Positions 3,441 through 42,530 of a DNA stretch of 64,000 nt are shown here, in pieces. Origin of the DNA: a virus (taxonomy: Duplodnaviria; Caudoviricetes); IMG/VR virus record IMGVR_UViG_3300048591_000242, positions 128,001-192,000 of that record; one strand, 5' to 3'. Each line of letters opens with the position of its first letter. Position 1 is the first letter of the stretch. The notes beneath the pieces are model-generated. The model was not told the origin of the DNA and made no database searches. It saw nothing but the letters and a program-made list of their open reading frames with translations. The translations under genes and the position numbers were made by a program.

Positions 3441-3752
3441 GTGGCGATAGATATAATAATCAGAGCCGACAACTGGGAAGAGCTAATTGGTGTCATACAC
3501 TGCATCAATTATGCCGATATACCCAGTGACGTATCTATAAGAATGGCCATTTGTAAAGATCTGGAAAAAACCATGAAGGCTTTGTTAAAGGCTAGTGTGG
3601 ATATAGATGATGTATTGTTATCTCATCCAGAAATAGCGATACATTTTAACGAACTTTGGGATAATATACAAGGCTACGGCTATGATATTTCGGATATCAA
3701 GATAATTGATAATTCCGGATCAATTTTAATGCGCATGGGGAGAATTAAATGA
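3441..3752 (+). CDS. hypothetical protein
   Basis: 103-aa ORF, GTG start, ATGA overlap with the next gene. Confidence 0.7.
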   Translation: MAIDIIIRADNWEELIGVIHCINYADIPSDVSIRMAICKDLEKTMKALLKASVDIDDVLLSHPEIAIHFNELWDNIQGYGYDISDIKIIDNSGSILMRMGRIK

Positions 3753-4168
3753 GTCCAATTAGTTTAGAAAACCTTAAGATAGGTGATAACATAATGTTCA
3801 CTACCTATGGTCCGGTTGCAGGTAAGGTAGAGTTTGCAGGTAAGGTAATAGGTTTATCTACAGCAGAATGGTTGCCTGTTACAACTACAGCCCCAACGGA
3901 TCACGTTAACATATATCGTGATTTACCTACTGAGGTACAAGAGTATGTAGAGGATAACTATAGCTCCTATAACTACATAGCAGTTAAAACCATAGACGGC
4001 GTGTTTTACATAGGAGAGCCGTGGATAGTTCTAGGTACACTTGTTTTGGATAATCCGGCCACAGCCACCGTTACCGTTTCTGATTATCGAGAATCTGATA
4101 CAAACCTTTTAACTCAGTTGCTATTATCTAATGGTTTTAAGGTAACTAAAGTAATTGTAAATAATTAA
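3749..4168 (+). CDS. conserved Chimalliviridae core hypothetical protein (phiKZ gp49-like position)
   Basis: Motifs FTTY, H..IY..LP and IG..WI; position just before the polymerase. Confidence 0.7.
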   Translation: MSPISLENLKIGDNIMFTTYGPVAGKVEFAGKVIGLSTAEWLPVTTTAPTDHVNIYRDLPTEVQEYVEDNYSSYNYIAVKTIDGVFYIGEPWIVLGTLVLDNPATATVTVSDYRESDTNLLTQLLLSNGFKVTKVIVNN

Positions 4169-4186
4169 ACGATTTGTAATATATAT

Positions 4187-4490
4187 GTGGAGTTATACTT
4201 TCACGCTGGTGTTTTCGGAGTAGGTCCTCGCTACTCATGTTTCCGACTAAAATCGGTCGCCCCTTTACCAGCGATCTTCTCGCATTCGGGTTTTTTACGT
4301 TTTCTCCCGATACTCCACGTACACGCCAGACCTTCGTGGTTGGGGATCTGGCGTGTACACCTATTTTAAAGGTTTGCGCCCTCGTGCGATACAACGGACT
4401 ACTCTCCGGTTGTTTCTTATGGGCGTTTTGCTAAAGGCTACCATCTATCACTTTACCCTAGCAAAGTGCGGATGGTAGCCTTTTTCTCTA
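4187..4490. ncRNA. candidate structured non-coding RNA 1
   Basis: GC-rich intergenic segment with nested helices: gtggagt/actccac (4187/4318), cgctggt/accagcg, tcggg/cccga, 12-bp gtacacgccaga/tctggcgtgtac, acaac-gga/tcc-gttgt, and a 13-bp terminal hairpin (4433-4483) followed by a T run. Confidence 0.6.
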
Positions 4491-4555
4491 TGCCATATTT
4501 TTTAACAACAAAATATCATTTATATGAGAACAACATCTTAATATAGGAGGATAAC

Positions 4556-4771
4556 ATGAAGATATTTTCAGTAAGAAACATAGTTATACTTCTAAATACA
4601 GTGATAGGTCCAATAACTGATGCCTGCGTAATAGCGCATTGCAACAGCTATATAAACTGGGGGGACTCTAAGCGACACCGATGTCGCGTGGGTCGGAGTA
4701 ACTATAGACGCAGACTGGCACCAGATCGCCACGTGCCATACCGAAGGTGCATCGGGTGTACGTATGGGTAG
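4556..4771 (+). CDS. possible 71-aa peptide overlapping structured RNA 2
   Basis: Strong GGAGG RBS; hydrophobic N-terminal half and Arg/Cys-rich C-terminal half. The 3' part may simply be read through structured RNA. Confidence 0.4.
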   Translation: MKIFSVRNIVILLNTVIGPITDACVIAHCNSYINWGDSKRHRCRVGRSNYRRRLAPDRHVPYRRCIGCTYG

Positions 4772-4820
4772 AATTGCCCCAGTAGATGAAAGTCCTGTTC
4801 TCCGTTACGTAGTCCCGCCA
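4620..4820 (+). ncRNA. candidate structured non-coding RNA 2
   Basis: Helices tgcg/cgca, actgggg/ccccagt, gggact/agtccc, gcgaca-ccga-tgtcgc, cggag(t)aac/gttctccg and tggcac/gtgcca; purine-rich loops; followed by a hairpin at 4840-4868. Confidence 0.55.
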
Positions 4821-4839
4821 AAAAACCTTTATAAGCATG

Positions 4840-4880
4840 GATACTCCTAGGCTGATCCTAGGAGTATCGTACTATGCTGT
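4840..4880 (+). terminator. hairpin plus TATGCTGT motif
   Basis: gatactcctagg-ctgat-cctaggagtatc, then tatgctgt at 4873-4880. Confidence 0.65.
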
Positions 4881-4960
4881 ATTTCCTAATTTAAAACAAT
4901 ATTAGGTAATTCTTTGTAATCAATGCACGTGTCGTTAAAGGACATAATGGGGAAGAACCA

Positions 4961-7292
4961 ATGAGCAATAACCCTTTCATAAGAGATCCGAAGAAATACA
5001 TAAGGGATCTTGATATAATTTCTAACTACTGTGAGAATATGGCGCAGTACTTAGCCATTTCTACTGGGGATAAATACGAAGACGTTCTATTGTGGGTAAA
5101 ATCAAACATCAAACCAGTAGAGCCTAAACTTAAAGTATTAGCCAGAAGAGACGGAGCTGATAGAAAAAAGGAAGTACAGGAATTATCCAAATATTTAAAT
5201 GAGGTATCTCATACTAACAGACTACTAGGGCCTAACCTAATAGTCTATGATAATCCTAAAAAGAATAAGTCTTTTATTTCTGAATTTATAGATAAGGGAT
5301 TAGAGAGGAGATCCATTGTAAAGAAGAAGGGACAGAAGGCTGAGATGGAAGGGGATATGGAAACAGCTATTTTCTGTGACAATCAACAGGGTAGAATAAA
5401 GATTCTAAACAACTCTATCTCGGGCGCACATGCGTCGCCACATAACCCTATTTATAATGCTACAGCGCATACTACACTTACCTCCGTATGTAGGTGTGCT
5501 ACTAGTTATTCTAATGCGGTAGTAGAAAAACTACTTACCGGCAACCGACATTATTATAGTCCGGAAATAGCTCTGGCTGACTTAGCCTCTATTATCAGAA
5601 TAACTGATTTAGATAAGCTAGAGAAAGCAATGGCTAAGTACTCCATAGTGCCACCTACAAAGGAATATGCTTTAGCGCATATTCTAGAGTCTTGTAATTT
5701 GTACTGGAGAAGTCCTACTGGAAACAGACAGCTATCTGAGTTTATAAACGCTATGTCTGACATAGAACTATCTGCTATAACTTACGTATCTGACCTTAAA
5801 GGTATAAGAGATACCAATGATGCCTTCATGCGCAGATTCATAGGCTGTTTGGTGGAAAAGGCCACAGTAGGTATAGATGAGCCTGAGAAGTATCACAAAG
5901 CCGCTGGTGGAGATTTACTGGCTATGGTAGGGTTAGTTATGTCTGAGGAGCTAAAGGGCCGTACGGTGGATAGAATGGCTAAAGAGGACCCAGAGTACTA
6001 CCGACTATATGGTGCTACTATAAAACAGATACTGGATAGCCTGTCCCTGTACACTGACTTTATAGATGCATTCTTGCGTACCGACAACATGCCGCCAGCA
6101 ATTCACACCATAACCTCATCGCTACGACGAGTGGCTATAGTCTCTGACACCGATAGTACTATTTTTACTACTGAAAACTGGGTAAGATGGTACTTAGGAA
6201 AAAATGAGTTTAATGTTAAAGCTATGTCGGTAGCTGGAGCTATAGCTTATATAGACTCACAGGTACTAGCTCATACATTGGCCATGTTATCTAGACATTT
6301 GGGGGTAGGAGACGATCAGTTATTTAGGTTAGCTATGAAGTCTGAGTTCTATCAGCCGGTACTGGGTGTAACTAACATGTCAAAACATTATTTCTCATAC
6401 ATACAGGCATGTGAAGGTAATGTATACTCAGAATTAAAGTTTGATACTAAGGGGGTAAACCTTAAAAACTCCAGGCTGCCTGGGGTAATTAAAACTGAAC
6501 TTAATAACTACATAAGGTGGATTATGGATTCGGTTATGTCTGAAACCAAACCTACCTTACGTGACGTATTAAGAATACCGGCTACTATAGCCCACGATAT
6601 ATCAGCTAGTCTTTCTTCTGGGGATACTAGCTATTTATCACACATGCAAATAAAACCTAAGTCTTCCTATAAGGGAGATAATCCACCAGCATGGGTACAG
6701 TATCAGCTATGGACTAAGGTATTTGCTCCGGTATATGGGCCAGCAGACCCACCCCCGTATTCTGCAGTAAAGGTACCAGTTATTATAGATAGTAGAGCTA
6801 AGATGGATAGTTGGGCTGAGACTTTAGATCCGGCTATGTCTAAAAGACTACGTGAAATGGTAATGGGTGAATACACGTACACTAGTGTTGATGGCTTAGT
6901 TGAACTAAGAGATGGAGATGTGGTTTTATTCATAACCAGAAAAGGAGGTATTTGCGGGGATATGGGTAAGCTGTATACCTATAGAGGTCAAGCCAAGTCT
7001 ATTGATTTAAGTAGCTTAGGATTAAGTGAAGTATCGTCCTCTACCAGAATATGGGAGTATACTGGTTCCACTAGAGAAAGCTTTACTAGTTTTATGGTAC
7101 CTGTATCTAGATTACGTGATGGTAAAATGCCTGTAGAAATAGCGCGTATTGTAGATTCTGCTAAAATTGAAGACGAAATGTTAGCTGGATTTATGATAGC
7201 TCTTGAGACTACTGGGTTCTACATACGTAACTCTGGTAAAACCAGATTACTGTCTAAAGAAATAGATATTGATATTTACAAGGAGAACAAAA

Positions 7293-7300
<8 letters not shown>
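4961..7300 (+). CDS. family B DNA polymerase, palm/thumb part of the split polymerase (phiKZ gp50-like)
   Basis: Motif B IKILNNSISG and motif C SDTDSTIF; partner exonuclease/motif A gene at 51909-53567. Confidence 0.9.
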
Positions 7301-41688: not shown

Positions 41689-42113
41689 AACATTACTCTC
41701 AGATTTCGGTCTGAGAGTATTTTCTATATTCTTTATTTTTTGTAAAAAAATCCTAGTAATAAAATACTGGCTAGGAGTTATATGGACATCAGTTTTTCAG
41801 AATTATTTTTCACGTAAACATTGAATGCAATGATGTCGGTTTATTCGTCGGGGCCTTACGCCCCCTCCTCATAAACCTCCCCTCTTTTTACAAATCATCA
41901 GTAAACTGAATTAATTTTTACTAAATTTTGATATGTATGAACATAGTTTTTTAACATAAAAATGAGGTACAAAGTAACTCATTTTCTATACTAAAAATGT
42001 AAGTTTAAATTAAAATATTTTAATAGTATATTTTACCTTTAGTTTAGGTTACTAAACTAAAACAGAGGCAGTATGTTAGTTAACTATTCTAAACCTTTAA
42101 AACAATTAAGCTT

Positions 42114-42173
42114 CTCTTATTCTCACTAAGCAATAACGTGAGTGAGAATAAATAACGTGAGTGAGAATAAGAG
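42114..42173. repeat. 19-bp perfect tandem repeat (x2) with a flanking 14-bp inverted repeat
   Basis: aataacgtgagtgagaata at 42132-42150 and 42151-42169; ctcttattctcact (42114-42127) is complementary to 42160-42173. Confidence 0.9.
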
Positions 42174-42530
42174 AGTATATGTTTGTTTTACTGCAAAAAG
42201 AGAAAAGACTAGTTTTGATTTATATCTAGCCTTATACTTCTACCTGATCTTTAGCGTATGCTTATACTAAAGCGACTAGCGCTACACAAATTGGATTAGG
42301 GCCGTTTTCTGAAACCATATATTAAACCAGTATAAACGTAAACGAGAAGGCTCCTAATCTTCTTATAGAGAGCATATTGGCTATGTACCTATACAAAGGT
42401 ATAGGTAAAATAAACTAAGCTTGTATGGGCTTACAATTAGCTTTAAGAAACATTCAGATATATATCACTTTTATAGAAGAAGACAATACCTGTCTTTACC
42501 TAATAGGGTTTTAAACCCAGGAGATTTAAT

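Follow-up and report, generated by a model that had tools for sequence, protein, structure and literature searches.

A putative terminator-bounded orphan unit preceding the DNA polymerase gene in an uncultured phiKZ-like jumbo phage

Terminator-delimited units in phiKZ-like phages and the locus studied

In phage phiKZ, 61 terminators have been mapped by ONT-cappable-seq, and their motif consists of a hairpin followed by YTTATKYYGT (Putzeys et al., 10.1101/2023.10.13.562163; PMC10914365). Related conserved terminator sequence motifs are found in phage 201phi2-1, and antitermination has been proposed for its long-stem terminators (PMC11512511). Short terminator-delimited units without an assigned function have been described in both phages; in 201phi2-1 there are 11 sRNA candidates, 8 of which come from premature termination in 5'UTRs (PMC11512511).

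The window of our analysis is a 64-kb stretch of DNA, which comprises bases 128001–192000 of a virus record that is 202 kb long and has terminal repeats; positions given below are those of the window. The mean GC content of the genome is 40% and its intergenic share is 9%. The genome is classed as that of an uncultured nucleus-forming (phiKZ-like) jumbo phage, because its DNA polymerase is similar to those of the phiKZ-like jumbo phages of Vibrio, Pseudomonas and Erwinia (35–38% identity) and because tubulin and chimallin genes adjoin the polymerase gene on the contigs of its relatives. The locus is found in an ORF-poor gap of 792 bp, which extends from an SH3-like gene (3749–4168) to the DNA polymerase gene, and all genes near it are on the + strand. 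The coordinates of its features are presented in Table 1. Since the terminators T1 (as a variant) and T2 carry one terminator signal, the locus is placed between two + strand terminators. On balance, we favour the view that the stretch of ~4495–4885 is a short lineage-specific unit in a variable slot between T1 and the DNA polymerase gene.

Table 1. Coordinates of the features of the locus and of related elements in the window
Feature	Position	Strand	Description
Terminator T1 (upstream boundary)	4433–4494	+	13-bp arms (4433–4445/4471–4483), T-run, TATGCC box at 4489–4494
Weak promoter-like box TTATATGA	4520–4527	+	Agrees with the phage's promoter-like box TATATTAC at 6 of 8 positions; contains TATG
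Shine-Dalgarno sequence AGGAGG	4545–4550	+	Spacer ATAAC, 5 nt to ATG
71-codon orphan ORF (ORF71)	4556–4771	+	ATG at 4556; hydrophobic N-terminal half, Arg/Cys-rich basic C-terminal half
GC-rich island	4606–4828	+	GC up to 56%; top 0.5% of 150-nt windows
Helix ACTGGGG/CCCCAGT	4656/4777	+	Complementary pair confirmed
Helix GGGACT/AGTCCC	4662/4811	+	Complementary pair confirmed
Helix GCGACA/TGTCGC	4672/4682	+	Complementary pair confirmed
Helix TGGCAC/GTGCCA	4716/4733	+	Complementary pair confirmed
Terminator T2	4834–4884	+	Outer AGCAT/ATGCT pairing, 12-bp stem, spacer GTAC, box TATGCTGTATTT at 4873–4884
Promoter-like box AATATTAG	4898–4905	+	Near-match to TATATTAC/G; start codon of the DNA polymerase gene 55 nt downstream
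Divergent family B DNA polymerase gene (downstream neighbour)	4961–7300	+	PF20286, PF00136; 779-aa product
(g/a)gtaTATATTACc box, examples in the window	11466, 17869, 23476, 28282, 30466, 40318		From motif list

Like the terminator-delimited units of 201phi2-1 and phiKZ, this unit is short, lies just upstream of a core gene, has a terminator of the phage's own and is not conserved outside close relatives. However, the candidates of those phages are shorter than 250 nt and come from real transcript ends (a 5'UTR sRNA being a mapped start followed by a mapped terminator within ~250 nt), whereas T2, a predicted terminator, lies ~350–390 nt from the T1 box. The unit also differs from those sRNA candidates in its strong Shine-Dalgarno sequence (SD) and its 71-codon frame.

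Terminators and promoter-like boxes

The T2 hairpin has a perfect 12-bp stem (4840–4851/4857–4868) and a 5-nt loop, with a dG of −24.6 kcal/mol. Fold z-scores, which compare the minimum free energy (MFE) with that of dinucleotide shuffles, reach −5.4 for the region of the hairpin (4826–4880). The original prediction had placed a separate terminator after the structure that it described, and this part agrees with our results: the hairpin together with TATGCTGTATTT is a + strand copy of the recurrent phiKZ-type terminator of this phage. The terminator family was tested by explicit scripted rules over the whole genome. Perfect hairpins with a stem of at least 10 bp number 47, most of which (42 of the 47) are intergenic. 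A TATGC box is present within 10 nt 3' of the stem in 25 of them, all 25 being intergenic, and the hairpin sides that bear TATGC amount to 35, compared with 1.3 expected by chance. Between convergent genes the box is found on both sides, while between + strand genes it is found on the + side only, as is also the case for T2. Because the sidedness of the box tracks gene orientation, these hairpins appear to behave as terminators and not as promoters. The copies read GCATAAG, a variable stem of 12–14 bp, the loop, the other side of the stem and then CTTATGC(C/T)GTATTT; an alignment of 19 copies shows the same TATGC in every one and gives the consensus TATGCTGTATTTT.

Compared with the phiKZ terminator, T2 is likewise a strong stem-loop, and the sequence cTATGCTGT, which follows no more than 4 nt on, agrees with TTATKYYGT at 8 of 9 positions; many of its sister copies in the genome read exactly CTTATGC(C/T)GT. 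The two families also share their intergenic position, the same orientation as the upstream gene and the two-sided form at convergent pairs. There are differences as well: the phiKZ stems are of the CCYCCCC/GGGRRGG type, whereas those of this genome are rich in TA/CTAG with a GC-rich top, and T2 has CTAT for TTAT and lacks a contiguous U-run. Since T2 belongs to the phiKZ-type family, a + strand RNA end near 4870–4885 is a reasonable prediction.

Concerning the upstream boundary, T1 is a variant of the same terminator signal. It closes the neighbouring RNA (4187–4490), the fold of which has a z-score of −7.1. A hairpin followed by a T-run and (T)TATGCC is also present upstream of the DNA polymerase gene in four relatives (L003, L005, L007 and L010). 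The tail of the terminator is kept as a T-run plus ATGCC at L003:2098, L005:3900, L007:2960 and L010:2551. In another relative (L008:2492 and 2929) the tail is a T-run plus TTTGCCGT, a variant of the box without the A.

There are two promoter-like boxes at the locus. The weak box TTATATGA is a candidate for the start of the unit, and AATATTAG would serve as the promoter of the polymerase gene, with a leader of ~55 nt. The box (g/a)gtaTATATTACc recurs genome-wide, for the most part 30–52 nt ahead of a start codon and in many cases close behind a terminator; it resembles the core of the phiKZ early promoter. On the minus strand, a perfect copy of the promoter-like box of the phage, TATATATTAC (4174–4183), is found at the 5' edge of the neighbouring RNA and is directed towards the SH3-like gene, into its 3' end, while the + strand reads TATATATG at 4180–4187, also at the 5' edge of that structured RNA. 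In the unit itself, the minus strand has no conspicuous match to a terminator or promoter that could serve an antisense RNA.

Folding of the GC-rich core and coding content of ORF71

The GC-rich island is the only one of the top 0.5% in the genome which lies outside ORFs of at least 80 aa. It had been suggested that the 3' half of the ORF runs through a dense set of helices and forms a structured RNA. All four of the named helices are indeed present as complementary pairs, and all are held by the core at 4656–4820, the 3' end of which is ...GTCCCGCCA at 4820; stability beyond that of shuffled sequences is absent. The MFE of the core (4657–4820) is −57 kcal/mol compared with −53.5 ± 4.2 kcal/mol in the shuffles (z −0.85), and 41 of 200 shuffles are as stable. 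Against dinucleotide shuffles, the z-score is −0.45 for 4645–4820 and −1.14 for the body without the hairpin (4491–4830); that of the minus strand at 4651–4812 (3' end shortened) is −0.04. The full stretch reaches −3.3, nearly all of which is due to the terminator hairpin, since the body without it is near chance. The core contains seven Watson–Crick complementary pairs of 6-mers, compared with 3.1 ± 2.2 in the shuffles (p = 0.07), and the inverted repeats of the stretch are about as many as would roughly be expected from 7-mer seeds that match by chance. The centroid structure of the core (−39.7, compared with the MFE of −57) loses a third of the energy and the frequency of the MFE structure is 0.003. 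Because the centroid is so much weaker than the MFE, the ensemble is ill-defined, with no single dominant fold. G4662 belongs to two of the named helices, which cross; these two are alternatives or a pseudoknot, and not a single nested fold.

The comparison with known RNAs gives the same picture of the window. Rfam at the gathering score has no match anywhere in it, and a search at low threshold (E up to 10) of 4100–5000 gives only chance-level matches (E ≥ 0.25). ARAGORN finds no tRNA or tmRNA, which rules out the ...GCCA 3' end as a tRNA-like acceptor. A hairpin that would sequester the SD (4544–4594, in the region 4540–4650) is not significant (z −1.1), and the antisense pairing of 4187–4432 with the unit is at chance level (duplex energy z −0.18). 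With the fold at chance level, no Rfam, tRNA or tmRNA match and no homologue found for covariation, the discrete structured RNA that had been proposed is not upheld. The GC-rich 3' half is not a discrete folded RNA domain, and its helices are a chance product of a GC content of 57%. A thermodynamic signal at chance does not by itself exclude a functional RNA, and statistics of nested folds are blind to a pseudoknot at the G-run.

Concerning translation, the strong GGAGG ribosome-binding site that was said to open a 71-codon ORF is present, as is the ORF (Table 1). The arrangement AGGAGG-N4-8-ATG is found in only 0.54% of block-wise shuffles of the stretch, a rarity which suggests that the ribosome-binding site is probably functional; the 202-kb genome contains only six such sites. 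An ORF of at least 71 codons is found in 6% of the block-wise shuffles.

The codon content of ORF71 is of a different kind. Its codon log-odds are −0.31 per codon (−0.01 for the first 33 codons and −0.57 for the last 38), a score which is below that of 87% of the ORFs of the same genome known to be spurious and lies beside that of an ORF inside the neighbouring non-coding RNA. It is also below the 1st percentile of 71-codon windows from real genes (first codon model). The GC content by codon position is flat in the 3' half of the frame (0.55/0.63/0.58), compared with 0.48/0.39/0.35 in the genes. Arg makes up 26% of the last 38 residues, compared with 4.4% in the genes of the genome, and Cys makes up 7% of the product, compared with 0.7%. 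Residues 9–27 (a 19-residue window) have a Kyte–Doolittle mean of 2.02 and contain N, P, T and D; the net charge of the tail is +9. This pattern of a hydrophobic and then a basic half mirrors DNA which is AT-rich and then GC-rich, as it would be encoded in any frame. Because typical spurious ORFs have a better codon content, real coding by ORF71 is doubtful.

Among 1.84 billion representative proteins, phmmer finds only ORF71 itself, and searches of Pfam and PHROGs give no family match. Its predicted fold is of low confidence (AlphaFold2 pLDDT 55; ESM Atlas model 0.37). Two candidate similarities were rejected: that of ORF71 to the 59-aa ORF of L010 (E 0.04 over 27 residues) is not meaningful, and that of its start region to L003 and L010 is not above shuffles. 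No homologue was found for a 56-aa ORF of the minus strand either. ORF71 is probably a young or fast-evolving orphan gene, or a mere translated leader. It resembles the ORFans in the hyperplastic regions of large phages, which are likewise small, have their own ribosome-binding site, lack homologues and lie at positions where the content differs between close relatives; it departs from them in its poor codon content, in which it falls behind even the typical spurious ORFs of this genome.

The variable slot and the readings of the locus

Eight syntenic loci of relatives were compared, with polymerase identities from 73% down to 53%, and a ninth is known from its gene list only. The SH3-like and polymerase genes are kept in 8 of the 8, and a T1-type terminator is kept in several. 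The gap between the two genes varies from 166 to 792 bp across the eight relatives. In five relatives (one by gene list only) it measures 166–305 bp, a length which would leave no room for an insert after T1, and in L005 and L007 the T1 box runs visibly straight to the polymerase start. Where there is an insert, its content differs: L003 has an SD-led ORF of 28 codons after T1, L010 has an SD-led ORF of 59 codons and another of 73 codons in DNA of 52% GC, and L008 (53% polymerase identity) has a second terminator-bounded unit at 2497–2935 without an SD-led ORF, the fold of which has a z-score of −6.2 (−3.1 without its terminator). None of these inserts resembles that of the window. The window's gap shares no sequence with the gaps of the eight relatives, nor with their whole loci (blastn, nhmmer), and the stretch has no match among 50,697 phage records (blastn). 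Patterns taken from the core and the hairpin, both exact and degenerate, have no match in viral contigs, two patterns from the core have none in metagenome contigs, a second copy of the unit was not found in its own genome, and viral contigs searched with the polymerase gave no related loci. Based on these comparisons, the slot appears hypervariable and the insert of the window lineage-specific.

In the gap of L010 (L010:2399–3000), the 59-codon ORF is rich in Cys, Arg and Lys and the 73-codon ORF abuts the polymerase start, neither having a family match. In L008 the polymerase gene is preceded by two non-coding units, each bounded by a terminator.

We put at a little better than an even chance the reading that 4495–4885 is a lineage-specific terminator-bounded orphan cassette, and not a demonstrable structured RNA. 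RNA would enter the unit by read-through of T1 or from the weak box near 4520–4527, and ribosomes would likely load at AGGAGG and the ATG at 4556 to read the 71-codon orphan frame. The phage RNA polymerase would stop at T2, a standard hairpin-plus-TATGCYGT terminator, a step well supported by family membership. The DNA polymerase gene would then be transcribed from its own promoter-like box with a leader of ~55 nt.

An unlikely alternative to the orphan cassette is a non-coding small RNA, delimited by terminators and acting by base pairing or protein binding, in which ORF71 is incidental. The non-coding look of its codons and its orphan status would both be expected of such an RNA, and there are models for one: the neighbouring unit at 4187–4490 is clearly structured and non-coding and ends in the same kind of terminator, the second unit of L008 occupies the same place without an SD-led ORF and folds beyond chance even when its terminator is removed, and 8 of the 11 sRNA candidates of 201phi2-1 come from premature termination in 5'UTRs (PMC11512511). 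However, the fold of the window's unit is at chance level and has no match in Rfam, no homologue was found for covariation, the unit is longer (~350–390 nt) than the sRNAs of 201phi2-1 (<250 nt), and chance would only rarely (0.5%) place a perfect AGGAGG at the ideal distance from an ATG. Quite improbable, in our view, is a reading in which the stretch forms a long leader on the polymerase mRNA, with T2 as an attenuator whose regulated read-through sets the polymerase level and with ORF71 as a leader peptide. Two co-oriented tandem terminators do stand just upstream of an essential replication gene, a T1-type terminator precedes the polymerase gene in several relatives, SD-led short ORFs follow T1 in L003 and L010, and the antitermination proposed for the long-stem terminators of 201phi2-1 would offer a parallel; but no alternative antiterminator pairing stands out, the region of the SD hairpin is not significant, and read-through of T2 would not be needed, since the promoter-like AATATTAG lies 3' of it, between T2 and the polymerase gene. 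Also, the insert is absent from most relatives (those with gaps of 166–305 bp), which argues against a conserved control device.

The original prediction also considered a toxin-like mRNA and a dual-function RNA, and both of these readings are speculation. A toxin-like small membrane peptide on a structured mRNA, as part of a type I toxin–antitoxin-like or dual-function RNA system in conflict between phage and host or between phages, would fit the hydrophobic segment, the charged tail and the strong SD, as well as a lineage-specific gene in a variable slot. Like the hok/sok-like type I toxin mRNAs, ORF71 would give a small peptide that contains a hydrophobic segment, read from an RNA in which the original prediction saw dense folding, although at 71 aa it is longer than most of those toxins. 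What such a system should have beside the peptide was looked for and not seen: unlike the hok/sok-like systems, the locus shows no antisense partner, no significant fold and no family match at ORF71. The minus strand has neither a terminator box (TATGC being on the + side only) nor a promoter for an antisense RNA, long-range folding is not significant, and the duplex with the neighbouring RNA is at chance level. The amino-acid pattern follows that of the AT-rich and then GC-rich DNA, and ORF71 has no homologue and a predicted fold of low confidence. We regard this reading as the most improbable of those considered. Very little more credence is given to a lineage-specific dual-function RNA, which would be the mRNA of a membrane-anchored Arg-rich peptide and would also act as an RNA through its GC-rich 3' half. 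The RNA part might act through a pseudoknot of the crossing G-run helices, and the whole could be a conflict or regulatory module acquired in the hypervariable slot beside the replication genes.

With the orphan cassette as the preferred reading, the locus is largely ordinary: besides a strong ribosome-binding site and an orphan frame, it has a single copy of the standard stop signal of the phage. The correction to be drawn is that helices picked out by eye do not amount to evidence for a structured RNA when they lie in a GC-rich island of a phage that is AT-rich; the sound part is the terminator, a signal which has already been mapped in phiKZ. In this clade of marine nucleus-forming phages, the slot between T1 and the polymerase gene is a hot spot for inserts that are small and unrelated, which could help in looking for accessory genes or sRNAs. 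Transcription units of uncultured chimalliviruses can also be delimited cheaply by means of the conserved terminator box.

Two further observations concern other parts of the genome. AGGAGG-led short ORFs on the + strand at genome positions 104707 (44 codons) and 113492 (31 codons) are candidate unannotated small genes. At 41720–42371 of the window (minus strand), 652 nt of 30% GC lie between two minus-strand copies of the terminator, and the longest ORF there on this strand does not exceed 24 codons; the stretch may represent a further non-coding unit.
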